Below, in pieces: positions 1,220 through 37,010 of a DNA stretch of 64,000 nt. This stretch comes from Amphiscolops sp. MND2022. Lineage: Eukaryota. The notes under the pieces were generated by a model. That model was not told the DNA's origin and did not search any database. It saw only the letters and a list, made by a program, of their open reading frames with translations. Location of the stretch: NCBI GenBank assembly GCA_964187785.1, contig OZ076409.1:48920001-48984000 (forward strand). Direction: 5' to 3'. How positions within the stretch are numbered: position 1 is the stretch's first letter; each line of letters begins with the position of its first letter. A program made the translations under genes and the position numbers.

Positions 1220-1953
1220 TGTAGCGATTACCTATCGAGTACACGATTTCGAAAATTTCGATGAAAATTTCGTTCAAAGGACTATATCCCCTCTACTGAA
1301 AAGTCATATTCCGCTGGACGGCAGCGTGTCTTTATTCAAGTACCTGCCCACAGAATTGAAGAGAATTTGAGCAAAAGACTCCGGGCAGACCCCAACCGAA
1401 CGAGAAGACTGCAGAAAAACACGGCCGCTGTCAGAAAAAGACTCAAATTTCTGTCAAAACGGACTGAACTTTGTTCTAGCCAGTGCTTTCTTCAGCGAAG
1501 CGTTACAAGACGCTGTGATTACCGAAAATGAGTCAATTGGCTTGACCAAGCATCCGTGCTTGTGTCCCCGGCTAATTGCTGCCTCAAAAGTGCTAATTAT
1601 GTAGTAATTTTCGTATTTTCTTGTTGTAACAGCTCGTGAGCTACTTATTTCGATTTCCTGTGTAACTTCGAAAAAACTTGATTTTTCCTTTCCACCACTT
1701 GCATTTTTTAAAGGCTATCTAAGCGTTGGTTCCGAAGAAAAAGCGTAATGCGCGCTACTGTTAGCAATTACAGACTGGATCAGGCCGGCGAGCACTTCTT
1801 AAGAAGCGGAATCCTCCTCTGACGGGACATTTCTTACCCGAAGGAGGCAAAATGGACTCATGGCCATGGGCGCCTGTCCCGGGCAAATACCCATGCCATG
1901 TGTTCCTCCTGCTCTTATGGTTACGGCGACAATGGTGAGAGCTTGTCGTTACA
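1220..1953 (+). repeat. 5' LTR (734 bp)
   Basis: TG...CA ends. Matches 19732-20465; the only difference seen is cgatttcGaaaa vs cgatttcAaaaa. Confidence 0.97.
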
Positions 1954-1969
1954 TGGAGAACACATTTTA

Positions 1970-1986
1970 TGGCGACCACAGAGGGA
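1970..1986 (+). promoter_or_regulatory. Putative primer-binding site, tRNA-Arg-like
   Basis: TGGCGACCACAGAGGGA resembles the complement of a tRNA-Arg 3' end (TGGCGACCACGAAGGGA, recalled from memory). It starts 16 nt after the LTR end. Confidence 0.6.
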
Positions 1987-4345: not shown

Positions 4346-5294
4346 ATGAAAACTAACAGTTTGCGTAACCTTTGGAATTCTATAACGAGAACATTAAGCC
4401 GCACGAACACCCGGCGATGCTCTAATCTTTCAAGAGGGGGGAGGAAGGACACGTCGCGACGCGCTGAAGCATCGAAAACACCAGACCCAACGGGGTGCGA
4501 GACAAATCTCAGTGCAATATCAGACCTGACCTCAGACCCCAGGGAGGAAGATTGGCCAACTGATGACAGTTTCGTTATGGAACCCGATTTTTCAGACCCT
4601 ATGTCAGACGACGCATCGGAGAAGTATCAGGCCAAGCCGGTTGCCAGGACTACCGATGATATCGGAGGTTCAGCTGACGAGACAGGAAGTCAGACCCATA
4701 CTTCCAAATGGTTGCTGGACTTACCCAGCGCTGTCACACCCTATGGTGTAGATGACACTGGAGCGTGGCCTAACTCCAACAAGACGAATGAAGATGAAGT
4801 AGAAATGAGCTGCCTGAATGCGACGGGGCAATTCAAAGCTCCAAGCACTGCGAGTGAGGGCACAGCTCATACCACAGAAGTACTCCAACAAATGTCCTAC
4901 ATTGGGGGCATGGATTATGTCAGGGCACGTCTTCAAGAAGCTACGGCTCCCCGAGCATCTGGGAAGGGTAAGCAAGTACGGCCCCCAGCTTTATTAGCAC
5001 TAACCAGTACTACAGTACCTCATGGGGATTCACGCTCATCCTCACCCTCATCAAAAGCTGCATCTGCCCGATCTTCGGCATATCGAGCCGTACATGAAGC
5101 AGCGAAAGCGCGCAAAGCTCTATTAGATGCTCAGATAGGCGTGAAGCAAGCTGCTTCACAACTGTCTGAGCGCAAGGCAGGCAAGGTGCGATAGAGAGCA
5201 ACAGTCAATAATGGAGGAAATAGAAGCCGTGCAGGTTGAATTGCGAACATCAACTGAGCGACAAGCGCAAGGACATTAAATTCAGGCCGCCCGA
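4346..5294 (+). pseudogene. gag: Disrupted N-terminal part of gag (disordered region, then coiled coil)
   Basis: ATG at 4346. The frame ends at TAG 5192, but the +1 frame continues as a coiled coil (QARCDREQQSIMEEIEAVQVELR...) through TAA 5277 into the 5295 ORF. Confidence 0.7.
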
Positions 5295-8200
5295 ATGGAT
5301 GCTATGGGCTATCGAATGGCCGAAATGAAAGACATGGTGGCCGAAAGAGAGGTGCGCATGGAAGCTCAAATGCAAGAGGTATGTTCACAGATACAAGCAA
5401 TGGGCACTATGTTGAAAAATATCCAACCTCGACCCGCACCAGCGAGCAACACTATCAAAGAGTTGCTGCAAGACACTGATGTATCACTGCCAAAACCCAT
5501 GAAAAGCGTCTCCCTCAAGCCAAAAGAGAGTTTGACGACTGCAACAAACCCATCTGGCTCTAAACAGCACTTGGCGAGGTACGCGCCTTTGCCACAACCT
5601 CTGGTCTCAAATGGAGAGGCCGCATCAACCTCGACGAAATTTATCCCGTCTGCGGTATCAACAAAATATATTCCACCCACGACCAAAGCTCACAAGAAAG
5701 AACCAACGTGCGAGGTGAGAACTATCGACACTTCAAGCATGGGTATCACCGGCCTGCGAGAGCCCACACGCACAAACGATCTAACTGAAGTCACCAGCAC
5801 CTTCCAAACAGCAAATGCAACTTTGGGAGAATCAGCTGCAGAATTCCAAACCGCGGACGATGGGTTGCCCCCGGGCAACCCATGCGCCAGCAGCACCCGA
5901 CGCCGAGAAGTGACTATCCCCGAGAACACCGATGACTCTGTCAACTCAACGCGAGGCAGCAGTATCCCGCCACCAGCTATCACTGAAGAAGCGCCTATAT
6001 CACCGGAGCAACTCAGGTTTACCGAGGCAATATCCAAGGCCATGTCCAAGGAACTGGCGCCGCTAATTGCTAATCGAGATCAAACTAGGGTCCGCCCTAC
6101 GGTGTACAAAGGCACTAATGATGGTACTGTCGATGGATGGCTTCCAGTGATGAAGCGATTTCTAGAAAGGGTGCATGCAAAATCACCAAAGATCGACAAA
6201 GCCTGGGCTATCATCGACCACCTGGAAGGGGAGGCGAGAAATTATATAATCAACAAATCTGAACCTGAACGAGACGAGCCCGACAAGGTATTCTCTCTCT
6301 TGGCCAGCAGGTTTGGAACCGGTGGAAACCGCATGCACGTCAGGCAAACCTTCATGTCTCGCGTCCAACAGGAAAAAGAGGATTGGATGCAATTCTTGGA
6401 CGCATTGGAAGGTCTGCGCACCCAAGGTTTCCCAGACGAGCCTATCACTACACGTCGTTATGAAATCCTGCAACGTTTTATAGATGGCGTCAATGACCCG
6501 ACGCTGCGACAAGAGTTGGCCGTGGTGTACGCTTCGGAGACATATTTGACTGAGCCACCAACTGTAGAATCCCTGAGATTCACCACGAGACAATTGCAAC
6601 GGCATCGCCCAAACACGTCAAAACCTTACGACCCAAGGTATGCAATGAGATCGAGGCCTAATCCTTTCGTGCCAGGGAAATTGGTTCACCCGGCACCAGG
6701 CCTACCACAAAATGTGCTGCCTCCAAACCAAGGACAGCGAGAGGCAAAGCCCCAGATGGCCCCACCAGGCCCTGCATCGGTAAAACAGGCTCCTGCACAG
6801 CAGCAACCAGCGAGAGTGATTCCCCAAGGAGCATGCTTCAACTGTGGACTACCGGGTCACTTTGCGAGGGAATGCCCACATCGAGACCTAGCAAGGAAAC
6901 CCGCGGCTCGCGCTGCACCCGAAGAGCGAGTGAACCTGTGTGAGAACAATGTGGCCTCTGCATGTTCTGGCCCCGTATTCTGTGTTAACTGTGGCATGAC
7001 CGAACACTCTGCATCACAATGCCAAAATGTTCCAGTACATGAGGATTTGGCCTACAGCCTCTGGGCTGAACAGCCATCTGCTTCTCAAACGATGAGTGAC
7101 AGTGAAATGGTACTCATGCTACGCCCTGCTGAAGCCGCTCACGTGGCGACGCCTCTTACCGTCACATGTGGCAAAATCCAAATCCAGACGAACCCAGAGC
7201 CAACTACTTTTGATCCCTCGGGACGCACTATCATGTCTGCCCGACTACTGTTGGCGGTCGAGAGAGAAACCCGCCCAGAACTCACCATAGACGCTTTGAT
7301 AGAAGAGATGACCGCAAACGAGAATTGCCGGCAACTGACTCTGCCCCAACGGGAAGAGTGGCAAGTGAAAGGTGTCACTTCGACGTATCATGCCTATTCT
7401 CCGATTCCAGTCAAAGTCTGCATAGATGGTGTTGACATGCGTTTTGGCGCCACTATTATTACTGATGCGTTTCCTCCTGGAAACTGCTTGGGACCGCAAG
7501 AGCTGCGCTGCTATAACATTGATGCTCAAGAACCAACTGGTGAAGCGAGAATCGATGAGCGTGCGTCGCTCGTGGTTTCATTCGTGGTTCCCGATGCTGC
7601 TCCCGTGCCATTACGTGGTCTAATAGACACTGGATCAGGAGTATCCATCCTCACCTTCTCAGCCTACAATCGAGTCGCCGTGCGCACTGGCACACTCTTA
7701 CGACCTTATGGTATTGACTTATATGCCGCGAATGGGAAGACGATCAAAACTTTTGGTCTAGCGGAGAAAGTCAAATTCCAATTGGGAGGCTATGAATTGG
7801 AAACTAACTTAGTGGTAGTTGATGACGCTATGGGAGTGGAAGACTTCCTCCTGGGCAGAAACTTCCTAAGAGCTTATCAGGTCTTGGTAGACCTAACCGC
7901 GATGAAGGTCATTGTCCGAGCTCCCTCTGAACCGGTGTGGTACCATGCCCACGCGCAAGAAAGTAACGAATCGCTCAATTCGTCGGTAGCGATTGCACAG
8001 GACGTAGTGTTGCAACCTTTTGAACGCGCGATACTACGCGCTAGATTGCTTGTAGACAACTTAGAACCTTTCATGTTTCGAACCGTGCTAATCAATTTTC
8101 AAACACCTAACCGAATGTTAAAAAACGCCATCTTTTTAGAGGACACCGTGGCGACCGTGGGGGAAACTGGTTTCCTTTACGTCAGTTTAGGAAATCTCAC

Positions 8201-11174
8201 CAGCAACGTACAGCGGATCAAAAAGGGCACCCTTTTGGGAACCGCGGTACCCGTGACGATGGTTCATAAAGCCATCCCCCAAATTGTCCCCGGACAATCA
8301 AATGAAACTCTGCAGTCAAATGCAAATTATGTTTGTAAAGTTTACGAACAGATGAACCTTGATTCTTCTTCTGAATATAGTTCTTCATCTGAATTTGAGT
8401 TTTTGTCCTCTACCGAACCGTCAGAACTAGGCTTGTCCGAGCGTGAAATAAAAAAACGAACCGATCCGGCGCTAATGGCTCCGATACCGGGCCCGGAAGC
8501 ACAACTCGACGAAGTGCGCGGTTTGTGGGGCTCGACCGCCAGCGACACGCTTAGTAAACTTTTGAACGAATTTGATGATTTGTTTATGAAATTCAAAGCC
8601 GACATTGGCAAATGTAAAATCGCTATGCACCCGGTGGAAGTAGAGCCAGGGGCTATACCTCACCGTGAAGGTGCAAGACGAATGTCGCCTGACAAGGCAG
8701 AACGTGCTAACCAAGAAGTCCGTGACTTGCTAGCTTTGGGAATGATACAACCTTCCCTATCCCCTTGTGCGAGTGGAATTGTTATGGTCAAAAAGAAGAG
8801 TGGTGAATTGCGATTCTGTTGTGACTTTCGACCACTTAATGAAGTGACCATCAAAGACGCTTATCCCTTGCCACGTATCGATGAGAGTCTATCCCGATTG
8901 GGCAAAGCCAAAATCTATACCAGTATTGACTTGGCATGGGCATTCTGGAAAATTCCTGTCCGAAAAGCCGATCGTCAAAAGACTGCCTTCGCTTGTGAAC
9001 TTGGGTTATTTGAGTGGCGGCGTATGCCTTTTGGTATGTGTAACGCATCAGCAACATTTCAACGGGCAATAGCGCGAGCGCTACAAAGAATAGTGAACCG
9101 CGAAGGAAGTATGGTTATGGCCTATATCGATGACATTGTGATTGCTACCAAGACCATCGAGGATCACATGGATAGACTATGCGAAGTATTCCAATGCCTG
9201 CGTGAGGCCGGCTTCAAAATGAGAGTCTCCAAGTGTGATTTTATGAAATCGGAGATCAAATATTTGGGCCGAGTTGTATCCGCAGATGGTATCAAGCCAG
9301 ATCCAAAAGCTGTCGCCAAGCTGAAAGATTGGGATATCCCGCGAACCAAAACTGAATTGCAAAGTTTCTTGGGTTTTGCCAACTACTATCGGGATTTTAT
9401 CCCATGGCATGCAAAGCTAGTTGCCCCTTTACATGCGATGACGGGCACAGGCTCTCCATTTTTATGGGGGGAGGAGCAGCAGCGAGCCTTTAACAGCATC
9501 AAAGTGGCACTAATGGAAGCCACTGCTCTGGCGCAACCCGACACTGAAGGCGAATTTGTTCTTGACACCGATGCTAGTGGTGTAGCTATATCAGGTATTC
9601 TTCACCAATGGCAAGGACCACCTGAGAGTCGCAAATTGCGACCGATTGTATTCGGAAGCAAAAAGTTAACCTCTACGCAAGCAAAGTATGGAGCCCCAAA
9701 ACTGGAAATGTACGCTGCATACTATTTCATCTTGAAAAACCACAGCTATCTCTGTCCACGGAAATTCACACTGAGGGTCGACAATCAGGCCCTATCCTGG
9801 CTAAAGACATATTCGATGGATCAGGCGATTATTGGTCGATGGATTATGGCTCTTGAAAAATATCACTTCGGTATTGAGCACCGACCCAGAACGCAACATC
9901 GAAATGCTGATGGTCTTAGCAAACGAACAAATGACTACAAAAAACACGAAAAGCAATTAAAGGGTTTTCCCGCAATTGCAGACAAATGGGATTTCCTATC
10001 ACAAGAGGAATACAACAAACTCCCGCTAGCCCCATGGTTTGATGTCCACGGACGTGTGATACCAAATCACCCAGAATTGCCTGCACACTTGCAGAGGTTG
10101 GCTAGCCAAAGTTCACCCGAAACCACAGTTGCCGCTCCCACGCGAAGGAGCGGACAAAGCAAACGAAGTGCGATCATGCGCGACGAAGCCATGAGAGCAC
10201 CCCTACCTACATTGCCAAAACCAGAATTGGCACTGCCTGCCGAACTTTATCCAGAGTATCCTGAGGATTGGTTGGAACTGACCGAGGAATATCAACGAGA
10301 CTATTTGCTCCCCACGCATGCTGCTAACGTACCATCAAGAACCACTTATCCACTGACGGAAAAGCAAGCAACTAGCACCGCACCAGAGCACGTAAAACAA
10401 GCCGCGTTTGTGGTAAACAGTATATCGATGGAATTGCATGAACATGCTAACACAGTCCATGGGTTGAAAGATCTACTACTGGCACAAAACCGTGACGTCC
10501 ACGTCTTGGCTATCAAGAAATTGGTAATGCAAGAGTCAATAGATCATGACATCTTTCCGGAAAATGTACGTGCCTTTGCCAAAAACTACCACAAACAGAA
10601 GAAGAACCTTCTGCTGGTAAACGCCAACGGGGTTTTGTGTGTAAAGTACTCCAAAAGTCAAAGAATTTTGCATGAACGCCCCTGCATGATAGTGATGCCC
10701 CAATTGTATCAGCATGAGATATTGTTCAAGGCCCACGACGCGATGGGACATCAGGGCATCGCGAAAGTCTTGGCCAGAATTCAAGAGCGCCACACTTGGC
10801 CAGGCATCCGCCGCACCATTGGACAATACGTCAGCCAATGTATCACTTGTCAACAAGTACGTGACAAGCCTGGTGATGTACGCTTTCACTTGAAAAATAT
10901 CCAAAGCGGCTATTTTAACGAGCTAGTCCAATATGACCACATGAAAATTTGTCCCTCTGACGATGGTAACACAGGGATCTTGGTTATTATTGATCATTTC
11001 TCTAAGCTCGCAGAAGCTGTGCCGTGCAACCACGATGAGTATGATGCAGCGACCACTTCAAAATTGTTGTTGCAGAAATGGTTTGCCCGCCATGGAACGC
11101 CGACGAGAATGCAGTCAGACAATGCTCAGCAGAGGCTCCCAACTTCACCGCGGCAGTATCTGCTGAGTTTATGA
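5295..11174 (+). CDS. gag-pol: Gag-Pol: capsid-like region, two CCHC knuckles, pseudo-protease, aspartic protease, dUTPase-like insert, RT, RNase H, integrase N-terminal half
   Basis: CFNCGLPGHFAREC (6834), CVNCGMTEHSASQC (6981), LIDTGS (7626), FLLGRNFL, LRFCCDFRPLN, YPLPRID, MPFG, YIDD (9123), VLDTDAS, NADGLS, HHCC zinc finger, IIDHFSK, SDN. Confidence 0.95.
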   Translation: MDAMGYRMAEMKDMVAEREVRMEAQMQEVCSQIQAMGTMLKNIQPRPAPASNTIKELLQDTDVSLPKPMKSVSLKPKESLTTATNPSGSKQHLARYAPLPQPLVSNGEAASTSTKFIPSAVSTKYIPPTTKAHKKEPTCEVRTIDTSSMGITGLREPTRTNDLTEVTSTFQTANATLGESAAEFQTADDGLPPGNPCASSTRRREVTIPENTDDSVNSTRGSSIPPPAITEEAPISPEQLRFTEAISKAMSKELAPLIANRDQTRVRPTVYKGTNDGTVDGWLPVMKRFLERVHAKSPKIDKAWAIIDHLEGEARNYIINKSEPERDEPDKVFSLLASRFGTGGNRMHVRQTFMSRVQQEKEDWMQFLDALEGLRTQGFPDEPITTRRYEILQRFIDGVNDPTLRQELAVVYASETYLTEPPTVESLRFTTRQLQRHRPNTSKPYDPRYAMRSRPNPFVPGKLVHPAPGLPQNVLPPNQGQREAKPQMAPPGPASVKQAPAQQQPARVIPQGACFNCGLPGHFARECPHRDLARKPAARAAPEERVNLCENNVASACSGPVFCVNCGMTEHSASQCQNVPVHEDLAYSLWAEQPSASQTMSDSEMVLMLRPAEAAHVATPLTVTCGKIQIQTNPEPTTFDPSGRTIMSARLLLAVERETRPELTIDALIEEMTANENCRQLTLPQREEWQVKGVTSTYHAYSPIPVKVCIDGVDMRFGATIITDAFPPGNCLGPQELRCYNIDAQEPTGEARIDERASLVVSFVVPDAAPVPLRGLIDTGSGVSILTFSAYNRVAVRTGTLLRPYGIDLYAANGKTIKTFGLAEKVKFQLGGYELETNLVVVDDAMGVEDFLLGRNFLRAYQVLVDLTAMKVIVRAPSEPVWYHAHAQESNESLNSSVAIAQDVVLQPFERAILRARLLVDNLEPFMFRTVLINFQTPNRMLKNAIFLEDTVATVGETGFLYVSLGNLTSNVQRIKKGTLLGTAVPVTMVHKAIPQIVPGQSNETLQSNANYVCKVYEQMNLDSSSEYSSSSEFEFLSSTEPSELGLSEREIKKRTDPALMAPIPGPEAQLDEVRGLWGSTASDTLSKLLNEFDDLFMKFKADIGKCKIAMHPVEVEPGAIPHREGARRMSPDKAERANQEVRDLLALGMIQPSLSPCASGIVMVKKKSGELRFCCDFRPLNEVTIKDAYPLPRIDESLSRLGKAKIYTSIDLAWAFWKIPVRKADRQKTAFACELGLFEWRRMPFGMCNASATFQRAIARALQRIVNREGSMVMAYIDDIVIATKTIEDHMDRLCEVFQCLREAGFKMRVSKCDFMKSEIKYLGRVVSADGIKPDPKAVAKLKDWDIPRTKTELQSFLGFANYYRDFIPWHAKLVAPLHAMTGTGSPFLWGEEQQRAFNSIKVALMEATALAQPDTEGEFVLDTDASGVAISGILHQWQGPPESRKLRPIVFGSKKLTSTQAKYGAPKLEMYAAYYFILKNHSYLCPRKFTLRVDNQALSWLKTYSMDQAIIGRWIMALEKYHFGIEHRPRTQHRNADGLSKRTNDYKKHEKQLKGFPAIADKWDFLSQEEYNKLPLAPWFDVHGRVIPNHPELPAHLQRLASQSSPETTVAAPTRRSGQSKRSAIMRDEAMRAPLPTLPKPELALPAELYPEYPEDWLELTEEYQRDYLLPTHAANVPSRTTYPLTEKQATSTAPEHVKQAAFVVNSISMELHEHANTVHGLKDLLLAQNRDVHVLAIKKLVMQESIDHDIFPENVRAFAKNYHKQKKNLLLVNANGVLCVKYSKSQRILHERPCMIVMPQLYQHEILFKAHDAMGHQGIAKVLARIQERHTWPGIRRTIGQYVSQCITCQQVRDKPGDVRFHLKNIQSGYFNELVQYDHMKICPSDDGNTGILVIIDHFSKLAEAVPCNHDEYDAATTSKLLLQKWFARHGTPTRMQSDNAQQRLPTSPRQYLLSL

Positions 11175-14122
11175 AAGCCGCCCAAGTGACCAAAGTAACC
11201 TCAACTGCTGGCCACCCCAAGACTCAAGGGTTGGTAGAGCGACAAAACCGAACGTTACTCACCCTACTGCGTGTATTCTGCTCTAGACGAATGCGTGATT
11301 GGGACCAGTATTTAGATGAAGTCATGGGTGCATACAACTCCACACGTCATGCCACTACTGGGTTCTCCCCGTATATGCTGACCAGAGGCATGGAAAAAGC
11401 TATACCCCTGACTTTCTTGTATCCCGAATTTGCAACTCAGTCATTCGAATCACACGAAGCCTATGTGGAACATGTGCTGGCTCGACAGCAAGAGATTCAT
11501 GACTTAGTCCGTCGTAACACGCATCAAGCCCAGCAGCGACAAAAGTTGAAATACGACCGAGCAATTCGTGCTAAAGCCTTTGAAGTGGGCGAACCTGTTT
11601 GGGTATTCTGCCGATACATTCCTCAAAAAGGATCTCCTAAATTGATGAGAGCATGGCGTGGTCCTCACAAAGTAGCACGAGTGCTACAAGAGGGACGCGT
11701 CTACATACTTGACACTGGTCAGAAAGTACATTTCGAACGATTGAAACCGCACCATGGTGGTCCAACAGAATGGGCAGCTGTTCCTGCGCATAACGGCGAG
11801 GTTGCTATCATCATGGACCCTGACCCAGAACAATCCCACGAGGAAGTGAGAGACGATGCCTCGCAACCTTCTTATCGTGCGGAGGAACCAATTTCAGAAG
11901 CCAGTAATGCCTCTTTGCCTTCTCGACAAAGACATTGGATGGACACACGGTTGCGCACACGCATGCGCGCTGGTGGCAGCCGCCTACATTATCAACAATT
12001 TGACTATTCTTCGACTGAGTCTGACGACGAACGTTCTGATGTACTCCTGTCGAGTGTTCAGGCTAATCCCGATGAGAGTGCTATCTTGTCATCACATGTG
12101 GATGAACCTGCGCCTATTCCCGAAATACCAATATCACCACTGCCTGCTATGGAGGCTCTATTCTCAGAGAATGAAGCAGTGCCCGACGTCTTGGATATCG
12201 CCCCAAATCCTACTATCCACGCACCCACCAAAAGTGCCGGCACCTCTCTGACCGGTACATCCGCCCCATTATTGACAAATCCATCTCTTACGGATATGTT
12301 GAGTAACTTTCCCATTTGGCCCCTAATCGATGACAATGTTCTCAACCCCACCTTAGACGACAACGGTGCTGAAGCACCAATGACCAATGACGAAAAGGGA
12401 TTTATTCCCCCTACGACAGTTCCCACCAACAACAACGCAGCTACTACCACGAAACTCTCCAATGCTCCTAGAGGGCATAGACCGCGGGGACGTCCGCCAG
12501 GCAGAGCGAGGCCGCGAGCCTCGCTGCCACGTGGCCACCAACAGAGAGGTGCTATTAGAGGCGCTCGCAAAAGAGGCCGTCCCAGAGGAAGACCTCCTCG
12601 TACAACACACGCCAGACCTAACACCTCTACCCGTGTTCGTCGCACTCCATCTGTGGACACTGACTCTTCTGCCCCTAGCGCGGCGGTTACCTCAGATCAA
12701 GCAGCACCGCCAGAATCAACCAACGCTCGCTATGGCCTGCGACGCTATCGTATTCCCAGATATCGTTGCGGAACCTGTGGCCTACGAGACTGCGAATGTA
12801 ACTACATGGTCCACGCGGGCTTCCCAATTAAACCCCAGGGAGTCCTGCTAGCACGTGAACAGGAGAAATCGCTTCCAAGCGGCACGGTTGACCGTTTGGT
12901 TATTCGAGCCGAGAAGACTTATACTGGGCTACAACGCAGCGACACTCCATATCCTGTGGACTATATCCTATCCAAAATGAAAGATTCTACGATAGCAAAG
13001 GCCCCGTGCCCAAGGTTCAAGGAGTGGACCTATGATCTTATTGGTTTGGAATTCACATTACCTATCACTGTTCCCCCCTTGCCTACAAATATTGCTTTTG
13101 GTCCTTTCAACTATGAACGAGAGCCTATCCAAATGGTACGCTGTATTCCTGCTGACCTTTTGTATGACAAGTACAATATCACCGCAAAACCAGGAGACGT
13201 TTATCAGCCTGCAACCAACTGGTGGCTACTACTTACGGCCAAACAAGTGTCCGACCTGGTTCATCCCAATAACTTGAACACCTGTCTGGAGAGTTTGCGG
13301 ACAATGGCCTCTCCTGATAGAATCACTTGTTTCCACACCATAGACCTGTATCGTGGTAAAATTAAGTTTGAATGGTGGCTGGAACTTATCATAGCAGTCT
13401 TATCGAACTTTTCACGAATCCGATTCCTGGACGAATGGACACACTCATTTCCTAGTCCTGTATCACTCCAATCAGCCCTACACGCACTGGATACATGGTC
13501 CAGGGCTAACATTGATAATCAATCGTTGCCGCGATCTGTGTGGCAAGACTTGGGCGCCATTAAAGGCCTCCTTCCGAACACATGTGACGATGCTCTCTCC
13601 AATGACCCCGGACGAGAGTTAGTATACCATGGAGCCGTGAGACCTCAATTGGTTGACTATGTGCAGTATGCCAATACGGACTTCCTGCAAACTCCCCATC
13701 ATATTGTTTTATGTTGTCCCGCAAACCTTGAGACTAATTCTGCCGCTCTTCGTTACGTCATTCGTGAGCATGGTGCAGATGCAATCTTTCAACTTCGACC
13801 AGAGGTTGGCAATATTGTGACGCTACCCACATCTTTGATAGACGGCCATCCTCAGACTATCAACCTTTTAATCACACGAGCTACACCTCGCTGCCCTATG
13901 CTCGCTGATATTCTCTTTGGATGTCTTGATCATTTGAAAACGTTACTCGAGCGCTTAGAGGCGATAGAAATACACTTTGCCATCATTGATCCTGAGCGCC
14001 CAATACGTAATCTTTTCGACTTTTATACCTGTTTGATGGACGTATTCGCTGACACGCCCCTGACCGTCGTTCTTCACGATCGCGTTTACGTATCTATTGC
14101 AAGCGTCGCTAGCTTTCCGTAG
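11138..14122 (+). CDS. pol: Continuation of pol after an 11-bp insertion: integrase C-terminal half, disordered linker, AT-hooks, Cys cluster, two macrodomain-like repeats
   Basis: Removing 11127-11137 restores SDNAPNFT. Then HPKTQGLVER (catalytic E), AYNST.H.TTGFSPY, WRGPH (GPY/F) and VHFERLK. GRPRGRP motifs at 12480-12600. Confidence 0.9.
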   Translation, partial: PNFTAAVSAEFMKAAQVTKVTSTAGHPKTQGLVERQNRTLLTLLRVFCSRRMRDWDQYLDEVMGAYNSTRHATTGFSPYMLTRGMEKAIPLTFLYPEFATQSFESHEAYVEHVLARQQEIHDLVRRNTHQAQQRQKLKYDRAIRAKAFEVGEPVWVFCRYIPQKGSPKLMRAWRGPHKVARVLQEGRVYILDTGQKVHFERLKPHHGGPTEWAAVPAHNGEVAIIMDPDPEQSHEEVRDDASQPSYRAEEPISEASNASLPSRQRHWMDTRLRTRMRAGGSRLHYQQFDYSSTESDDERSDVLLSSVQANPDESAILSSHVDEPAPIPEIPISPLPAMEALFSENEAVPDVLDIAPNPTIHAPTKSAGTSLTGTSAPLLTNPSLTDMLSNFPIWPLIDDNVLNPTLDDNGAEAPMTNDEKGFIPPTTVPTNNNAATTTKLSNAPRGHRPRGRPPGRARPRASLPRGHQQRGAIRGARKRGRPRGRPPRTTHARPNTSTRVRRTPSVDTDSSAPSAAVTSDQAAPPESTNARYGLRRYRIPRYRCGTCGLRDCECNYMVHAGFPIKPQGVLLAREQEKSLPSGTVDRLVIRAEKTYTGLQRSDTPYPVDYILSKMKDSTIAKAPCPRFKEWTYDLIGLEFTLPITVPPLPTNIAFGPFNYEREPIQMVRCIPADLLYDKYNITAKPGDVYQPATNWWLLLTAKQVSDLVHPNNLNTCLESLRTMASPDRITCFHTIDLYRGKIKFEWWLELIIAVLSNFSRIRFLDEWTHSFPSPVSLQSALHALDTWSRANIDNQSLPRSVWQDLGAIKGLLPNTCDDALSNDPGRELVYHGAVRPQLVDYVQYANTDFLQTPHHIVLCCPANLETNSAALRYVIREHGADAIFQLRPEVGNIVTLPTSLIDGHPQTINLLITRATPRCPMLADILFGCLDHLKTLLERLEAIEIHFAIIDPERPIRNLFDFYTCLMDVFADTPLTVVLHDRVYVSIASVASFP

Positions 14123-14344
14123 AACTTTTTTTTTCCTTTCGCTCTTTTTTTGTTTTTTTTGTCCGCTCGATTAAGTTTAGTGAATCGACACGGAGTTTAC
14201 TTGAAACAAATACGTTACCTTTTCTTTTAATGTTAATTTGTGATATCCTATTACTTCCCCTGGTATTACCCTTAAAATGACCTATGGTGTTACCCTACTA
14301 TCAAGTGTGCTACAATCGACCTGCAGTCTTTCAGAGTTTCCGTC

Positions 14345-17300
14345 ATGAACCAAGGTGACGATGAAAGCAACTACGTCCCTCCAAGGTCTTCAGATGACTC
14401 TCCTGCCTTGGGGCAACGCGTTTACGACACTGCGCGTGTCCAGCGTACCCCACAAATTGCTTTCATTCGAGACAGACTCGACCAAGGTCTGTCGCCAGCT
14501 ACAGTAGCCGGGGTGGCGGCGATCATAGCCCAGATGGAGTCACAAGTGCAAGCCCCTATGCTGACGATATCTATCACTTCAGGCTTTCCTGGGTTCCAGC
14601 GATCTATGACGTTCCAAGATGGAGTGTGGTACGGCCATGATCTCACACATCACTTTACGGATGATCGTGCAGCGATCTCATACAGTCCTGCGAATGGCGG
14701 AGTCCATCAGACCAGATCTCTACAGATCCCCTCTTGCCCGCCTCCACCTCCACCGCCACCTCCTGTATCGATGCCACAAACAGTAGTGCGTGCAAGCACT
14801 TCTGCTCCTGCAGTACCTAACTTGTCCAATCAACCAATGGCAGAACAAGCAGTTATCTCAGCACTGCAAGCAGTAGCTATCAACCCTAATTACGCTGATT
14901 TCATGCGATCCATGGAGCAGTGTTGGCCTGAACTACGCCAAATTGCTCTGCCCACTGTCACTATTCGCAACGAAAACGCCACTTTGAACCAAACAAGTCA
15001 AGATGCTATCACTATTCCTCACGTCAATCCTCAGTCTGAACAGCCAGGGCACTCCCGCACCGTGACTGTAGAGCGCAGTCGTTCGCCTTCCCGCTCTTCT
15101 CAAAAGGGGGGAGGAGAGAGCCGCCCTGCCTCCAGAAAACGCAATGACCGTTCTCCAACAAGAATGAGTGCTCAACAACCACTAACTGCTCGTGACAGCC
15201 CCTCGAGCAAGCCACCACCCGACAAAAGGATCTCCAACGAGAAGGCCACAACCTCCAAGACGCCAAACCAAACAAAATCAAAAGTGTCGGAAGCATCCGT
15301 GCTTCCCTCACCCCAGCCACAACCAAACGCAACAGGCGAACAACAAGGACTGCCGCAGCCACCATCCACGCAGTCTACAACACGCGAGTCGCTGGCTCAA
15401 CGAGCGATTCCTAAGCCTTCTACATCAAGACAGCCACAAACGGAGCAAACTGTGGGTTATCAAGGCACCCCTGAACCGCAGCGAACTGTCAAGGACATAA
15501 TGGGTGATTACCCAGGATTGAAGGTAACCAACAGTGGTCCAACTGGAACCCCACTCCGCAAACAGGCAATTCAACACCCAACTAAGAGGACCTTTACAAA
15601 GCAACCGACGTACCTGAGTCCAATGCAAAACACGAAGGGCACGCTGATCACCAAGGACTCCCGACGTATCTGGGAATCGGCAGTTATTGTATCACCCGAA
15701 TGGCTGTTTGAAAAGAACATGTGTCCTCCGAATGACGAAGAGCATGCGAAATTGAAGAAGGCGAATGTACCTGTATTCATGAATCGTCCAATTCGCCCCG
15801 ACCACACCCCTACTAATGAGCCGCCATGGCTAGGGAAGGCAATGAATATTCTGCCAAACGTAGAAGACAACTACTTGGACGCCCTCAACATTGACCTTCG
15901 TGGGCAATTCGCTGACCGATACTTCCTCAACGCTGGAGAGACCTTCGAGATCAACCCGCGGTACGCCCGTGACCTCGAAGCCCAGCTACCAATGCCAAAA
16001 GAAAGGTTGCAGCGTGCGCGCTTCGCCTTACTTGTAGACTCGACCTTCCTCAAAAATATCCCTATTGACAATGTGCTGTCAGACGTGATGGTTTTCACTC
16101 TACCGCTGTCACGTATCCCCGAGATGGCTGAAGTGTTGGTCACCATGTTTGACCCCGAGATGACGGGGACCTTCAAAGAGCCACCCCCACGCAGAGTGAT
16201 CATCAGTAACGTTTTCGATCACATGGCCTGTGAAGGACTAATGGCCCAGATCGCGAACGTTGAAATCATAAATCCAACTCCAGCACAGCAAGCAACAGTA
16301 CGCAACGCAGCACTGAATGTGGCCCGAGCCATGGAAAAAGCCCAAAATATCCTAAAGAATAAACTCAACGTGCCAGTCTTGTTTGTAACACCCCCAGGTT
16401 TCTGCCAGTGGCATCCCGCCTTGCAGAGATTTATCTATATGGTAACAGAAATTTGCAAATGTAGAGAAATAGACTTTGCGATCTGCGCGCCCAATATGCG
16501 GATCAGCTCCGACGACTTGCGTCCCTCCTGGCTTTCCTACATGGGGTACGTTGCCTCAGTGTCTAAAGTGCTACAGTCAGTGGAAAAGACAGGGAACGCG
16601 CAGCTGACAATCGATGATGCCATCTATTTTGATCACGGCACTCGTATGGGCTTGTTAGTATTCAACAACAACGGAGAAAGGCGAGTCCCAGAACCTAGCA
16701 CGGCTGAATGTGAGGCAATCCGCCTGAATAACTGGATGGAGCGCGCGCGCTCCTCCGGTGGAAAGACTTGCATTAAAACTGATCTTGCGGAAGTCACCGC
16801 CATAATGAGCAAAATCCCCAGCGACCGAGAAGTGGAACGAGCCATCCCGCGAGTTCAATTTGCCCAGGACCTCACTATTGACCAACTATCAGTGGGAATG
16901 AGGTATATCGCTGCAAAATTGACGAGCGAGACTCAGGCTGAAATCCAAGCCTTCAGCAGCACCTACGACGCTTGGTACCAGCGGCTGCAAACTACCACCG
17001 TAGCAGACATTGCAAAAGAACTTGGGATGTCAACCGACCAATTTGCCATCTGTTTGGGATTGGGTTGGAGTCCCGATGTTATTCGAGTTGAGTTCGGCTT
17101 GGACGAACACTGGTTGATCGAAATCAGCAAGATTATCGGCACCATGCAAGTAAACGAACTCTTTGCACTGATAATCACCTTCGGGCAGAAACGCTTCGTA
17201 GCTGGCCCAATTATGATATTGACCGACCTGGTTACTGAGTGTAATCTGGAATGGCTATTTTCGTGTTTAGTGATTGCGCGAGGCAATATCTCAGGCCTCA

Positions 17301-18715
17301 CCGCCTTAGCCAAGCTGCTACAACGAAAAGACGCTCAGGATTATCCCGCTCACCTGGAGCGCATGACAACTTCGTTATATCACTGGATATACTGCAGTCT
17401 GGTCTTTGCCTCGGGACTTTTCGTGGGCGTAGATAAGCACCAACCATTATATGACGGACGTCAGCTGGTGACCGAGGTAGCTGGATTTCTGACACCTAAC
17501 CAGCTGGCAGATTTCACTTTGGCTGAAGTCGAAGACCTTGTACCGGTGTTAGCACCCGTGCTAACTCCGATATTTGGCCCAACCGGGATACTTCGCTATC
17601 CCACCAAGCCTCTGCGACTCGCCTGGGAGACACCAACAGTATCCATTCTGACTTTTCTGAAGAATGTAAAACCGTACAACTATCAGCAGATGCTTGAACG
17701 CGGGCTGTTCCTGCTAATACCCCGCATGTCTACCACCATAAAGAACGAAACGCAGCAGGACGAAAACCTGGCCGGCATTCTCAAAGCCCGGACAAAGAAG
17801 GCGTGCCCTTTACCTCGCGAATACGGCCCGGTGAATTGGTACAATTCGCCCCTAGATCACCATGGAATCCCACAGCGATTCAATTGGAGTTTCGCACACC
17901 TCAGGAAGTACGTGACCGAATGCGTACAAGCCATGGGCGGTCACACAAACCAGGGGTATAATTTTCAGAAGATCAAGCTTCCAGCCAGGTACTGGCGAGG
18001 ACCCATCGGCTATGCGCGGGCTAAGCCAATCAGCATGGTTGAGAAAGGCTTTCATGAGCAGTACGCCTATCGCGATCACTACAAACTAGGCGTGTGGATG
18101 TGAAGGACCCTGGAGGAACGCCAAGGGCGCCTAAAAGTCTTGATCATCCCTCCACAGACAATGCCAGTTTGGAATCCAGAGGCGAGGGTCACTATGGGAA
18201 GCGACATGCCAGCGGAGACCTGCTACCATGTCATGGAACTGCTGAGTGATCCCCTCGGACCAGAATGGGAAGCCTCCAGGCAAATTATAGAACATGAAAA
18301 CAGGGACAACTGGTCCAGAGCCTGCGGGCTCTGGGGCCGACCTGATCTACGCCCGAAACTCAGTGCCAAGCAGAAACGACCCATTGCCACCCGCAATAGA
18401 CCGCTAGATCTACCACACCTGTTTAATGCCAGTAGATTGGATGTGCAGATCCCAACCTCCACGTCGACCACAAGTTCTGCCAATGTTAGCGGCTCAGCCA
18501 ATGCAGCGCAAGAACATTCGCCAGAAGTCTCAACTCCCGTAGCTGCAGAAAATGGCCCTAGTGGCTCAAACACGACTCCCAGGACCCATGAAACTGCCAG
18601 CGCCGAACCAAGGCCAGTCCTGCGAGAAGGAAATGTGCGAAGAGGATCCCTGTCCGAATCACAACCGAAAGCCGACGTCTCCCCCAGAGCGCGTCACTTA
18701 TCCGCCACCCAGTAA
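14345..18715 (+). CDS. Extra ORF3 in env position (about 1,456 codons, one internal TGA at 18101): Pro/Ser/Gln-rich N-terminus, SGNH-hydrolase-like domain, helical C-terminal region
   Basis: The 1252-aa ORF and the 18140-18715 ORF share a frame and are separated only by a single TGA. Both lie inside the LTR pair. No signal peptide is visible. Confidence 0.8.
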
Positions 18716-19721: not shown

Positions 19722-19731
19722 GGGGAGTGTA
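19722..19731 (+). promoter_or_regulatory. Short polypurine tract (GGGGAG + TGTA) before the 3' LTR
   Basis: Purine run immediately upstream of the 3' LTR, preceded by the hairpin CTTGACG-GGGA-CGTCAAG (19694-19711). Confidence 0.6.
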
Positions 19732-20465
19732 TGTAGCGATTACCTATCGAGTACACGATTTCAAAAATTTCGATGAAAATTTCGTTCAAAGGACTATATC
19801 CCCTCTACTGAAAAGTCATATTCCGCTGGACGGCAGCGTGTCTTTATTCAAGTACCTGCCCACAGAATTGAAGAGAATTTGAGCAAAAGACTCCGGGCAG
19901 ACCCCAACCGAACGAGAAGACTGCAGAAAAACACGGCCGCTGTCAGAAAAAGACTCAAATTTCTGTCAAAACGGACTGAACTTTGTTCTAGCCAGTGCTT
20001 TCTTCAGCGAAGCGTTACAAGACGCTGTGATTACCGAAAATGAGTCAATTGGCTTGACCAAGCATCCGTGCTTGTGTCCCCGGCTAATTGCTGCCTCAAA
20101 AGTGCTAATTATGTAGTAATTTTCGTATTTTCTTGTTGTAACAGCTCGTGAGCTACTTATTTCGATTTCCTGTGTAACTTCGAAAAAACTTGATTTTTCC
20201 TTTCCACCACTTGCATTTTTTAAAGGCTATCTAAGCGTTGGTTCCGAAGAAAAAGCGTAATGCGCGCTACTGTTAGCAATTACAGACTGGATCAGGCCGG
20301 CGAGCACTTCTTAAGAAGCGGAATCCTCCTCTGACGGGACATTTCTTACCCGAAGGAGGCAAAATGGACTCATGGCCATGGGCGCCTGTCCCGGGCAAAT
20401 ACCCATGCCATGTGTTCCTCCTGCTCTTATGGTTACGGCGACAATGGTGAGAGCTTGTCGTTACA
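19732..20465 (+). repeat. 3' LTR (734 bp)
   Basis: Direct repeat of 1220-1953. Confidence 0.97.
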
Positions 20466-20513
20466 TGTAGTTTGATGAAAAACGTCCGGAAGCTGTTCAG
20501 TCATCTCCAATGA

Positions 20514-21368: not shown

Positions 21369-22012
21369 CTAAAAATCCAGAGATTAGACCAATGCAGGTA
21401 GATTATTAACTAGCCACCAGAAACCTGGGATCCAACCCTGAGTTTTTTGGTTTCATGTCTTTACTTGAACACGAGTATTGAGTACCAGTGCAGACGCTTC
21501 ATGCATGAAAACACATGTTTTAAAAAAGTTTTTAAAAATTACCGAAAATAATTTAATACAAATTCTCGCCCCAGACAAAATCGCTGACATTACACAGTAA
21601 AAGTTCCCAAGTCATAAAAGCCCGAATCAAAAGCGACGGGTGGTTTGAAAACTCTTTTTCCACAACCATTGTTGAATTTCGTCACTCCAATTAAATTAAT
21701 GTCAGTTTTCCTTTCTATCAAAATGCAATACCCATCAAGAAATTAGTTTATCTTTTTAAGAAGTGCCAAAATTAGCAGTTTAAGTGGTTTTTAATTATGA
21801 ATTAATAGTTGTGAAAATGCTACTTTGGGTATTACCACAGAAGTATTATATCCATTCGGCGCCTTCAAGTCGAGACGGAACAGTTTTACTCAAACTACAG
21901 TAATACACTTCGCGTTGGGGCGCCTTTGACTGGGGCGCTTTTGTCTGTAAACGAATATATCGACCTCAAGATTAAAAAGAAAATACTTATCGAAACTTCC
22001 TAAACATCGGAC

Positions 22013-22527
22013 TGTAACGGCACCCTTTGGTGCAGCAAAATCAGTAGCGGAAACCCTATGTAGCGGAAACCGTTAAAATGAGTCTTTTTGCCTAAAAATC
22101 TTTGTTTGGTACTTGGAGCCCATGCTCCCCAGCTTGTAGCCATGTGGTCTGCCAGATTTATGCCTGCTTTGATGCATTTCCACTGTTTTTAGCTGTAATT
22201 ACCAGCCCGAGAGCTAGTTTTGGCAATTTTAGATACTATTCCGATGTCACCCTGGAACCGGAAATTCACCTTATTCTTGGCATTGTTTTTAATTGCTAGT
22301 TAAGTGGTGGTCTTTAGAGAGTCAGGAAGATGCCCGTTACTATTAGCAATCAAAGGATAGGACCGGTTGGACTGTATTCGTCGAAGCAACCACGGCCCCG
22401 TGGCGTATTTCACCCCTGGAGGAAAATGGATCTGTGGCGATCGCCTGTCCTAAGCGATTCACCCTTTCCTGCAGTTTCCTCCACCTCTGCTAACGCGTTA
22501 AGTGACCGATAACAGCTTGCCGTTACA
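22013..22527 (+). mobile_element. Solo LTR related to the giant element's LTR, internally deleted copy
   Basis: TGTAACGGCA...TGCCGTTACA ends. Similar to 24949-25433. Flanks GAC/AAC. Confidence 0.8.
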
Positions 22528-23650
22528 AACGTTCTATAATTATATTCATTCTAATCTGGAGGCTGATAATTTAGTGTACAGACAAAGCGCCCATTTTATA
22601 CAGTCATAATCTTCCGAGTCAGCGACTCAAAATATCGAAACTACAGCAAATCAGAAATACGAAAGTATCATGAAAAATCGCAAATATTGGGAGCATTGAA
22701 CATCGGAATGCCTATATTAACAACCCGTGTGATTTCATCCGCACGCTCATTTCAGAGATCAGGAGCTATGTATTTTTAGTATATTTAGCATATTTTTCAA
22801 ACAAACGCATTTGTAAACTAGATAAAAATCTGAGAAACTTTTACTTTTACCATTTTTCAAAATTCACTGCCGTTTGTGAGATATTCGATCTTGAGATTTA
22901 CCTCATGTTGCTTTTTGCAGAATCACTACTGTACTGTGCTGTTTACTCAAATTTGATATTGCCAACACTTCCGAATCTAATGGTCAATTAAATTCGCCAG
23001 ACATGGGCGTGGTTTGCATCGATATCAGCTGAAAATGCCTATTTTGAATCCAAATTATGGGCGGGATTTTTTCGTGCGAACTTTAGAACAAAGGCTTACT
23101 TAACAAAGACGTTGCATCAAAATTATAGAAAAAAATGTCAATGTTGCTAAAAATACGATTACTAAAACTACTATACCGCTGTGTACTTCAAATTACACTC
23201 TCTGTAATGTCTCATCAATTGTAATTTTTGTTGAAAATCCGAGGCAACGAGTAAGTTCACAATTCAGACTCATACTAACAAGTAATCGAGAAATAGTGTT
23301 AAAACTATTTTTCTCGAAGTTCATTTGTGAAATAAATTGAACATATAGCAGGTATGTGTACATCAAACGTTAAAACGATTAAATTGATTTTCATTCTGAT
23401 CAAATCAAGTTCAGAAAATTAATTTCTGGGTTTACTTGAATTGAAATGTACCATGAATGACGTTCACACCTTCAAGCTTCTATGCCGTTCACTTCATCCT
23501 GCCTTTTGTAGGAACATAAAACGCTAAATTGCTAATAAAACTAACAAAAATGCCTATGATTTACCAATACAACACTGAAAGTTTCAAGTAAAGCAAACCT
23601 ACCCTACTGCAAAAGTTAGGCGACATTATCAAATATATCAAGAACAATAC

Positions 23651-24239: not shown

Positions 24240-25615
24240 CGGGAACGGCCCAAGTCGGTGCCATATCTAAGGCTCAAAAAAGCAAAAGGACTTCAAAGTG
24301 TCAAAGTATTCTCTTTTACAGTACCCAAAAAACCCAAAAGTTGGACCGAATTGGCGCGCCAGGGGGAACGTTTTGAGATTTTTCCCCATTCTGTCGCAAA
24401 CCATCGGCATTTTTTTGGATTTTGTAACATCCATTGTTGCAAAACATCAAAAAATTGAAGGGGGACCCTTTGGGGAAAATTTTTTACGAAAAAAAGTCTC
24501 ACAACGCCAAAGAAAACTGAAAGGGGGACCCTTTGGGATTTTCAACGTCCATTCTGTTGCAAAAATGAAAGGGCCATTTGGAGAAAAATTTCAAAAAAAA
24601 GTCGCACAATTCCGAAAAAAAACTGGAAGTGGTGACCATTTAGTCTCGTCCGGTATTGTATGTAACGGCAAGCTCTGGTACAGCAATATCAACCGATTTT
24701 GCAACTTTGACATGTTCAGAAATTTTGTCAAAAATTCTAATCCGATGTGTGACGTGGCACTGAGCATGTGATTGCTCTTTTCGCTGTTTCCACGAAATTG
24801 ACAGGTACTTCGACAACAAAGAGCAAGAACGAGCAAAAACACGGGCGCGCCGCCATGACAGAAGCCAGAGACGGCAAGAACATCCGAAAATAGACTCTTT
24901 TTGAGGTGCTAACACCGGTTTTATCGATTTTCAGCATTATGCTACCTTATGTAGCGGAAACCGTAAAAATGAGTCTTTTCGCCTAATTGTCCTTGTTTGG
25001 TGCTTGGAGCCCCTGCGCCCCAGCTTTTTAGCTGTGTGGTTTGCCATATTCGTGCCTGTTTTCATGTATTTTCAGTGATTTTGGCTGTATTCAGTAGCGT
25101 TAGCGCTAGTTTAGATCTTATTCCCCAATTTTAGATCTTATTCACATGTCACCCTGGAACTGGAAATTTACCTTATTCTTGGCATTGTTTTTATATGCTA
25201 GTTAAGCGGTGGTCTTTAGAGAGTCAGAAAGATGCCCGTTACTATTAGCAATCAAAGACTAGGACCGGTTGGACAGTATTCGTCGAAGCACCCACGGCCC
25301 CGGGACGTATTTCACCCCTGGAGGCAAAATGGATCTGTGGCGATGGGCGCCTGTCCCGAGCGATTCACCCATTCCTGCAGGTTCCTCCACCTCTGTTAAC
25401 GTGTTAAGCGACCGATAACAGCTTGCCGTTACAGTATCTTACGCGGAAAGAAAGGAAAAACGTTTTTGGTTCAGTTTGCTGGGCCAACAGGTACATTTTG
25501 GCGACACCTTAAAAATTTGCAGAACTTTTAGTAGTACTATTTTGGTCACTTCATGTGTATCAAAAAAAAACACTGACAAAAAACTATGACTATAGTCGAC
25601 TCTTTTCTCAAGAAA
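24240..25615 (+). mobile_element. Helentron/DINE-1-like element split by the solo LTR at 24661-25433
   Basis: Starts CGGGAACGGCCCAAGTCGG and contains GGGGACCCTTTG repeats. Resumes at 25434, colinear with the intact copy at 57898-58399. Confidence 0.75.
24661..25433 (+). mobile_element. Solo LTR (773 bp) of a family related to the giant element
   Basis: Perfect 14-bp terminal inverted repeat TGTAACGGCAAGCT/AGCTTGCCGTTACA. GTA/GTA flanks. The last ~230 bp align to the 3' part of LTR 1220-1953. Confidence 0.85.
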
Positions 25616-30117: not shown

Positions 30118-31299
30118 ATTTGCTGTACTCATCGGTACTTAAATTTACAACTGCATGTTGATGAATAATGTCACAATGGTATTTAATGAAAGGGTATAGC
30201 GTGGACGACTGATTGTTCCAGTCATACTTTCATGTTAAAATGAAATGGTGAATATCACAACGATATGTCTTTCACAATTTGTTAAATGGTATGATGATGA
30301 AAAACGAATATTATGATGATGGACAAGGAATTTTATGATGATGGACAAGGATTGTTATGATGACCGGTTATCCATGTCTTTGAAAGTATTGTTTTAGGAT
30401 GAAAGCAGGATCAATAAATAAATCTAGGGCATAGTTAAATAAGATGACTTGTAGTTTCAACCATGTATTTTAGTGTATTTCATGTATCTCATCGGTAAGA
30501 TAGTTTTGAGTTTACTCCTGTCTTCTTCAATCTTGCCATACGGGATGACAATAACGCTCTTCAGAATGAAACATGTCGGGAACAGCCCAGTTACAGTACC
30601 AAAAAGTACCAATTGGGATACGCAAAAGGATAACATCAGGCAGTCAATGTTACAAAATTTCGATGAAAAATTCGAAATGTGCGGTATCAAATAACCACAT
30701 TCAAGATGGCCCACCCGGCAGGTACGAAAGTCGTAGAAGAACCAAAAAAAACGTACATACAGACCACCGCGTAGTTCCCGACACCCGAAGGCACTCGGAA
30801 GAGGCTGAAAAAAGAGCGAAACCCAGTGTGGTGCCATATCATCCAGGAAAATGTCGGAAAAGACCCTCCAGAATCAAGGTGCAACCTGTCAGTGGATCTT
30901 TGCAAGAAATCTGGAACCTTCTTAAAGATGCTCAAGGAACTCTTAGTAGTTAATTTCATTGTTATTGATGTTTGTGGCAGATTTGTAATAAAATTGGATC
31001 TAGCAGATCCCAATTTTGCTCATTTTAGATATAATTCTGCAAATATAATGTCCTTTTGCTGAACACCGTTTTTGGACCTCGGAAGTGTGTAGGAGTCGCG
31101 AGAACACGCTAGAAACCTTAGGATTTGTTTTTACAGGCTTGTGGGGCGTGTCCAGACTTTGAGAGTGCCGGCGCGTCGCCTCGGATCTCTAACAAGATGA
31201 GCTTCCTTAGACGTCAGAAATGTCCCCCTAGGAGACTTGTTTCAGCACCGTAGGCATTGTCCCTCTTCCTATATGTGCGCCGCTAGCCGGACGTTACAA

Positions 31300-31933
31300 A
31301 GACTCGAACACCGCTTTTCCTCAACTTGAAACATCAAAAAAACTGATTTTCTAAAGGAGAAAAAAATGAATTTTCCGAAAAATTGTTTCTTCGAGCAAAT
31401 GTTCCATAGTGCCGATAAGGAGGCTTTGCACTCGGGAAATACTTATTTCATTCGATGCTTCTTTCGAAAACATTCATCAAATTAAAGGGGTAGAAACAGT
31501 AAATTATTCGCGAAATCATTGAGATAACTCATCAGTTCCACAGGAACAAAGAAAGTTTCAAAAAAGAAAAACGCAAATGATGCGACCCTTTGGGCTTTTT
31601 TATCATCCAGTTGGGTGCAAAAAAAAACAAAATAACCAAAGAGGGGACCCTTAGGCGACTTGAAAAAAAATTCGAGGAAAAAAGTCTGAATGCCGAAAAA
31701 CCAGTAAAAGCGATCCTTTTGATTTGTCTAGTAACGAAAAAAGCTCCAAAAACTATGGTGCCCAATAGTGGAACCCTTTGGAACCACCGGAGTTTGCTTT
31801 CTAGTAAGGTAGGAAGGCCTAAGAAATTCTGTAAAAAGTGGACCTTTCAGTATGAGGCCTGTAGTCTGGAGAAAAAGGAGGGTCACTGTAAGAGTCGGGC
31901 ATTTTTTGTTTTCCAAAAAGCGCCGACAAAAAC
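31300..31933 (+). mobile_element. Helentron/DINE-1-like element, diverged
   Basis: GACCCTTTGG motifs and the family 3' end AGTCGGGC...AAAAGCGCCGACAAAAA. Confidence 0.6.
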
Positions 31934-36810: not shown

Positions 36811-37010
36811 NNNNNNNNNNNNNNNNNNNNNNNNNNNNNNNNNNNNNNNNNNNNNNNNNNNNNNNNNNNNNNNNNNNNNNNNNNNNNNNNNNNNNNNNNN
36901 NNNNNNNNNNNNNNNNNNNNNNNNNNNNNNNNNNNNNNNNNNNNNNNNNNNNNNNNNNNNNNNNNNNNNNNNNNNNNNNNNNNNNNNNNNNNNNNNNNNN
37001 NNNNNNNNNN
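36811..37010. other. Assembly gap (200 N)
   Basis: Run of N. Confidence 1.

Follow-up and report, generated by a model that had tools for sequence, protein, structure and literature searches.

A giant Ty3/Gypsy-type LTR retrotransposon lineage that probably makes 3-bp target-site duplications independently of Troyka

The target-site duplications of foamy virus and MLV, at 4 bp, are the shortest among the retroviruses discussed in PMC4358916 and PMC9410886; those of HIV and Ty3 are 5 bp long, and those of ASV and MMTV 6 bp (PMC4358916, PMC9410886, bioRxiv 10.1101/2021.07.27.453949). During integration, the two CA-3' ends are joined to phosphates that are staggered between the target strands, and the gap is then filled in by repair. 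In retroviral integrases, the length of the duplication has been attributed to active-site spacing together with target bending (PMC4358916). A survey of plant LTR elements found 13,566 of 13,566 flanked by 4, 5 or 6 bp, but the finder that was used required a duplication (PMC6317226). The only LTR group for which I found 3-bp duplications in the literature is Troyka, also known as the Kuafuorterviruses (Kapitonov and Jurka 2008, as cited; Kojima 2025; PMC12440569). Its diagnostics are CG...CG termini (CGCCA...TGGCG), LTRs of 100-400 bp and an internal part of 1.5-7.7 kb (PMC12440569; Gong and Han 2024, PMC11673190), as well as a CX2CX8-10HX4C knuckle, no GPF/Y motif and an RT motif that reads IADD, VADD or LADD (PMC12440569, PMC11673190). 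One case of a 4-bp duplication is on record for Troyka, which occurs in aquatic animals (PMC12440569). Among giant elements, the planarian Burro is Gypsy-like and more than 30 kb long, and its polyprotein includes MATH, BIR, BCL2-like and env-like domains (PMC6431247). In the literature outside Repbase Reports, subscription journals and the supplements of the Troyka papers, I found no 3-bp duplication for a TG...CA-ended Gypsy lineage, nor did I find an intasome structure from an LTR element with 3-bp duplications. A sequence-only reading of the locus described here had taken as its premise that LTR integrases give 4-6 bp, which is right as a rule but omits the 3 bp of Troyka (PMC12440569). 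Because Troyka already makes 3 bp, the novelty here is a second, TG...CA-ended, Gypsy-type case and not a first case.

The locus lies in Amphiscolops sp. MND2022 (assembly GCA_964187785.1, contig OZ076409.1, positions 48,920,001 to 48,984,000). This whole stretch of 64 kb is what I call the window. It holds one full element of 19,246 bp (1220-20465), with an internal part of 17.8 kb, two solo LTRs, an empty site paralogous to one of them, and a tentative fourth site:

1217..1219, + strand: left target-site duplication of the full element, TGT
1220..1953, + strand: 5' LTR, 734 bp, TG...CA
1954..1969, + strand: 16-nt spacer from the LTR end to the putative primer site, with predicted pairing to U5 at about 1891-1910
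1970..1989, + strand: putative tRNA primer-binding site, TGG and then sequence that resembles a complement to the acceptor and T arm of a tRNA
4199..5194, + strand: upstream open frame of 331 codons, no family match
5280..11174, + strand: gag-pol first frame, with two CX2CX4HX4C knuckles, protease, RT (YIDD), RNase H, integrase zinc finger and the first two catalytic Asp
11045..14122, + strand: gag-pol second frame, with the remaining integrase core (Glu), the WRGPH (GPY/F-type) motif and a long tail with a probable OARD1/TARG1-like macrodomain
14276..18103, + strand: extra ORF of 1275 codons, with 32 homologues in related families at 40-97%
19722..19731, + strand: G-rich tract at the position of the polypurine tract, not purine-pure
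19732..20465, + strand: 3' LTR, 734 bp
20466..20468, + strand: right target-site duplication of the full element, TGT
22010..22530, + strand: older solo LTR (22013-22527) with its flanks, between the arms 21933-21994 and 22532-22592 of an inverted-repeat element
24658..25436, + strand: younger solo LTR of 773 bp with its GTA/GTA duplication, inserted in a host repeat
30626..31301, + strand: tentative fourth site, a decayed LTR-like insertion (30629-31298) with flanks AAG/AAG, 5' end uncertain
58202..58204, + strand: GTA present once in the sister host repeat, at the paralogous site that is empty, from flank alignment

Within the window, the full element is flanked by TGT on both sides, the younger solo LTR (24661-25433) by GTA on both sides, and the older solo LTR by GAC (22010-22012) on the left and AAC (22528-22530) on the right, a mismatch of one transition. 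These were the flanks that the sequence-only reading had claimed, and all coordinates and triplets check; 3-bp flanking repeats around these LTR insertions are thus confirmed. All LTRs, those of the full element and both solos alike, have TGTA...TACA termini, and their ends are not in doubt because they form terminal inverted repeats (14 bp and perfect in the younger solo, 10 bp in the older solo and 8 of 9 bp in the full element). At these exact ends, none of the three sites shows a perfect flank match of 4-10 bp. When the ends were moved by up to three bases, a single alternative appeared across the three sites: a 4-bp GTAT at the younger solo, with the first T counted as target. Shifted likewise by one base, the full element reads TGTT/TGTA and the older solo GACT/AACG, both mismatched, so the GTAT reading does not generalise. 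The earlier statement that no 4-6-bp duplication fits stands for the exact ends, where it extends to 10 bp. Two further readings were tried and rejected, namely shorter LTR ends with a 5-bp duplication, for which the flanks disagree, and an 8-bp duplication at the younger solo, which matches at 6 of 8 positions but is confronted by a 3-bp overlap at the empty paralog.

How surprising these flanks are can be put in numbers. Pairs of 3-mers drawn at random from the window match at all three positions in 1.9% of cases and at two of three in 14.9%; two perfect sites together with one that matches at two or more positions have P = 1.6e-4, a value not corrected for the fact that several lengths were tried. 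Relative to no duplication, the log10 likelihood ratios sum to +3.6 for 3 bp, -18.7 for 4, -13.4 for 5 and -18.5 for 6, with assumed per-site divergences of 0.2%, 10% and 5%. The older solo's own log10 ratio is +0.15, which is almost uninformative alone. As a control, a Gypsy element from outside the clade described below (L082) reads as a clean 4-bp CATA/CATA by the same approach.

The younger solo can also be compared with its empty site. A sister copy of its host repeat, at 58100-58385, is without the LTR. When the two flanks are aligned to it separately, the left one ends at 58204 and the right one starts from 58202, so that they share exactly 3 bp, and at the duplicated triplet both flanks equal the sister repeat base for base. 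The 3-bp overlap that had been claimed for an empty site near 58195 is borne out by this alignment. The host repeat family has copies at 24232-25616, 30566-31750, 37983-38410, 48905-49700, 57894-58400 and 60019-61016, which start near ACAAG and have inside them tandem units about 125 bp long as well as GGGGACCC motifs. I presume that it resembles non-autonomous Helentron-type elements. It receives the younger solo LTR and probably the fourth candidate as insertions.

The older solo is 515 bp long with an internal deletion and is 85% identical to the younger one over 490 bp. It interrupts an inverted-repeat element (21933-22592) near its centre, and the AAC on its right continues an arm of this palindromic host element, which weakly suggests that GAC may be a mutated copy of AAC. 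The solos and the full element represent different LTR families (76% over 96 bp by blastn; nhmmer E 4e-25). The claim thereby widens from one family to a lineage, but the solos are tied to the integrase of the full element only indirectly, by LTR similarity.

The fourth site is a segment (30629-31298) of a third LTR-like family inside the host repeat. It terminates in CGTTACA, interrupts a decayed copy of the younger solo's host repeat and, compared with both LTR families, outscores 600 of 600 background windows, also with its terminal eight bases trimmed. An nhmmer profile of the three LTRs returned no further copy and did not recover this fourth candidate at E <=10. Its left end matches its own terminal repeat at 9 of 13 positions (the next best placement reaches 8 of 13) and adjoins an A-rich flank, and its AAG/AAG flanks support a 3-bp duplication weakly. 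A start at 29004, which would make a 2.3-kb LTR with a 4-bp near-match, was rejected, as that position sits in a different short repeat.

The two LTRs of the full element differ at 1 of 734 positions. The break between its gag-pol frames falls inside the integrase core near 11120, where relatives at 96% identity have one open frame. The tail of pol probably holds an OARD1/TARG1-like macrodomain (about 13600-14120), as suggested by a family profile (E 2.5e-22) and by a Pfam Macro match in the relative L002 (E 4e-4); a search with the window's sequence alone gave no match to a macrodomain. In P0081, a further member of the family, a GDSL/SGNH-like domain follows the integrase. The extra ORF matched no family in Pfam, gave no usable match in an Atlas search, and showed no similarity by tblastn to the extra ORFs of the relatives L002 and L005; the extra ORF of L002 itself has a weak IBR match. 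A low-confidence structural model of the extra ORF (mean pLDDT 46.5) contains one alpha/beta domain with weak SGNH-like structural matches (best Z 7.5), and Foldseek returned no match to the model at E <=0.001.

The remainder of the window contains several other features. A 2.4-kb element at 26443-28848 is bounded by terminal inverted repeats, about 358 bp long and 96% identical, and has no long ORF. Two repeat copies that start with ATGTAGGG, at 38413-40812 and 47180-48501, are 93% identical over 954 bp and then 83% identical over 357 bp, and the copy at 38413-40812 is enlarged by a 1.1-kb insert that has a 15-bp terminal repeat. The segments 38413-39363 and 47180-48106 were considered as an LTR pair and rejected, since there are no clear TG...CA ends on both and no coding match. 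On the minus strand, a TRPM2-like domain (Pfam PF25508, E 1.3e-7) is encoded in the open frame 50067-50735, which is probably a host exon and suggests that the host is an animal. Tandem repeats of 351 bp and 27 bp lie at 44357-45406 and 33650-33800, respectively, a 498-bp tandem duplication at 60020-61015, and a 200-N assembly gap at 36811-37010.

Judged by its proteins, the element is of Ty3/Gypsy type, with duplication length as a variant trait. Its best match among solved structures is Ty3 Gag-Pol (PDB 7Q5B), to which it aligns continuously over RT-RNase H and through the C-terminal domain of the integrase. WRGPH/WRGPF is aligned there to the GPF of Ty3, and the GP(H/F/W)-type motif follows the catalytic Glu by 141-142 residues. 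Trees of RT-RNase H (FastTree, rooted at the midpoint and lacking named references) were built after near-identical homologues had been thinned and distant hits subsampled; in them, the element falls in a long-branched clade of 44 of the 126 sequences with local support of 1.0, and repeat trees agree. Y(I/V)DD was found in 24 of the 29 clade proteins checked and IADD, VADD or LADD in none, the other five being without a match. The clade members L002 and L005, which are on long contigs, are also giant and have a large ORF behind pol. Ten clusters of pol homologues were looked up, and four large ones among them have from 448 to 2307 members, counted as protein pieces; of the members read, none bears a name. 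Among the best 120 hits to a distant clade member, none is named as a described element; those that bear names are two frog proteins (38-39% identity), a bacterial-bin protein and entries with generic labels.

Further insertion sites of the clade were sought in 80 metagenome loci, kept from 554 confirmed ones, and in 39 loci from bacterial genome bins, with LTR pairs scanned for in loci of at least 4 kb. No clade locus among these 80 and 39 has both LTR ends. Both outer LTR ends were present in two loci, both outside the clade: L082, by the tree, and L107, which at 33% identity is also placed outside. L107 sits in a TC microsatellite, so its flanks are uninformative on duplication length. Viral contigs gave 26 pattern matches and no relative. 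Two of the bins contain clade fragments; in these, searching for LTRs produced only E > 0.5 and the end-plus-primer pattern was no commoner than its reversed control, and 40 further small contigs of one of the bins (G001) contained no LTR. The bacterial species bins (L081-L119) carry many eukaryotic Gypsy-type contigs, which are host contamination; L082, intact and with its 4-bp duplication, is one of these.

The putative primer site at 1970-1989, which might be complementary to the acceptor and T arm of a tRNA, begins 16 nt from the LTR end. The offset is 7 nt in the relative L001, and 1, 1 and 5 nt in three outgroup loci. No tRNA genes were found within the 64-kb window. Folding predicts that the spacer pairs with U5 (z -2.4, with 5 of 200 shuffles as stable); a U5-spacer hairpin in L001 is unsupported (z -0.5). 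The spacer is complementary to the U5 segment TTCCTCC, which lies 51-52 nt before the LTR end and is kept in both LTR families, and this complementarity could reflect a U5-leader stem or a self-priming arrangement. If the tRNA-like site is the true primer site, the right cDNA end would be longer than usual. With so distant a primer site, the integrase of this clade might then have to trim a far longer end than the usual two bases.

What kind of integration would leave such flanks? I consider it probable that the lineage, consisting of giant (about 19-kb) Ty3/Gypsy-type LTR retrotransposons, makes mainly 3-bp duplications and does so independently of Troyka. Its integrase would attack the two target strands at phosphates 3 bp apart, joining a CA-3' end to each, and gap repair would then leave a 3-bp duplication. 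In work on retroviral and Ty3 intasomes, a duplication is as long as the offset between the two strand transfers; by analogy, the intasome of this lineage may have active sites set closer together, or a more sharply kinked target, than the foamy virus complex with its 4 bp, in line with the altered intasome geometry that the sequence-only reading had proposed. The protein diagnostics suggest that the trait arose independently of Troyka. None of the integrase residues compared explains the 3-bp stagger. A Gly-to-Ala change two residues after the second Asp is limited to the window's subclade while the wider clade has Gly, and Ty3, at 5 bp, is also without Gly at this position. The subclade has in addition a two-residue insertion before the first integrase core helix. 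The position that corresponds to Ala188 of the foamy virus integrase is Pro in this element. The lineage-level claim of the sequence-only reading is partly supported and is the reading that fits best: two related LTR families at 3 bp and one empty paralog speak for it, and the number of sites (only three firm, one doubtful) speaks against it.

It is unlikely that the lineage makes mixed 3- and 4-bp duplications of which the window holds the short ones, 3 bp perhaps not being the mode. Mixed lengths are on record for RSV/ASLV, with 5 and 6 bp (PMC9410886), and for HIV integrase in vitro (PMC4358916), Troyka has once given 4 bp, and the younger solo allows a 4-bp reading after the one-base shift; however, no site has a clean 4 bp at its exact TG/CA ends, and a minority length would not be expected at three of three sites. 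I give a similarly small weight to the explanation that the real duplications measure 4-6 bp or do not exist, and that the 3-bp matches are due to chance, to small deletions after insertion or to assembly errors at the LTR junctions. The sample is small, and the flanks of the full element partly echo its internal junctions: AGTGT resembles AGTGTA on the polypurine-tract side, though only with a one-base offset, and TG.AG recurs on the primer-site side. Given this likeness, a consensus error at the full element's junction is possible, and the break in the pol frame could itself be a sequence error. Against this stand the joint pattern, with P of about 2e-4, and the flanks of the younger solo, which match the host's sister repeat at the duplicated triplet and overlap there by 3 bp; independent deletions, for their part, would need to leave one and the same duplication length at two or three sites.

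A single origin of the 3-bp stagger, with the element being an aberrant Troyka/Kuafuortervirus or a Gypsy element with a Troyka-derived integrase, seems very improbable. Its attraction is that Troyka is the sole LTR group found with 3-bp duplications in the literature and lives in aquatic animals. However, the TG...CA ends, the LTR and internal lengths, the knuckles and YIDD contradict the published diagnostics, and the integrase itself contains a GPY/F-type motif and aligns with Ty3 through the C-terminal domain. The reading that I prefer is a lineage with mainly 3-bp duplications that arose apart from Troyka. Whether this reaches to a widespread, unnamed clade of giant Gypsy-type elements, with a Troyka-independent 3-bp stagger, TG...CA ends kept and a primer site 7-16 nt from the LTR, is evenly balanced.

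If it does, no canonical Gypsy or retroviral-type integrase would be known with a stagger shorter than these 3 bp. The geometry of an intasome can be read directly from the length of its duplication, and a 3-bp integrase that can be aligned end to end with those of Ty3 and foamy virus would make a comparable pair for the study of spacing, the integrases of Troyka being more remote. It would also uncouple the 3-bp duplication from CG ends, which together form the Troyka signature in PMC12440569. LTRharvest has a default minimum duplication of 4 bp and a default maximum LTR distance of 15 kb (PMC2253517), so that with these defaults the element would be rejected twice, by duplication length and by size. 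With protein clusters of hundreds to thousands of members, a large fraction of the genome may be mis-delimited in some animals.

Finally, the element can be set beside the known systems. Like Ty3/Gypsy elements, it has the pol order PR-RT-RH-IN with no tether domain (by Pfam positions), direct LTRs with TG...CA ends, CCHC knuckles, YXDD, and a D,D35E integrase with a GPY/F-type motif. It differs from them in its far larger size, its extra ORF, its probable macrodomain and a putative primer site 16 nt from the LTR end, and in a duplication of 3 bp where 4-6 bp is typical, a trait by which the family is not defined. The integrases of foamy virus and of this element can be aligned, but foamy virus and MLV are env-bearing retroviruses with a 4-bp stagger. 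Burro is likewise a giant Gypsy-like element with accessory domains and many copies, but the element here is 19.2 kb long and has no Pfam match to MATH, BIR, BCL2-like or env-like domains, which sets it apart from Burro as described. With Troyka it has in common that it is an LTR retrotransposon of an animal host, with PR-RT-RH-IN order and 3-bp duplications (two perfect and one with one mismatch, of three here). In contrast, its termini are TGTA...TACA and not CG...CG, its LTRs of 734 and 773 bp and internal part of 17.8 kb compare with 100-400 bp and at most 7.7 kb, it has two CX2CX4HX4C knuckles in place of CX2CX8-10HX4C, its integrase carries WRGPH/WRGPF where Troyka has no GPF/Y motif, and its RT motif is YIDD and not IADD, VADD or LADD. 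On these sequence characters, the element is very probably not a member of Troyka, and among the Troyka diagnostics compared it shares the 3-bp trait alone.
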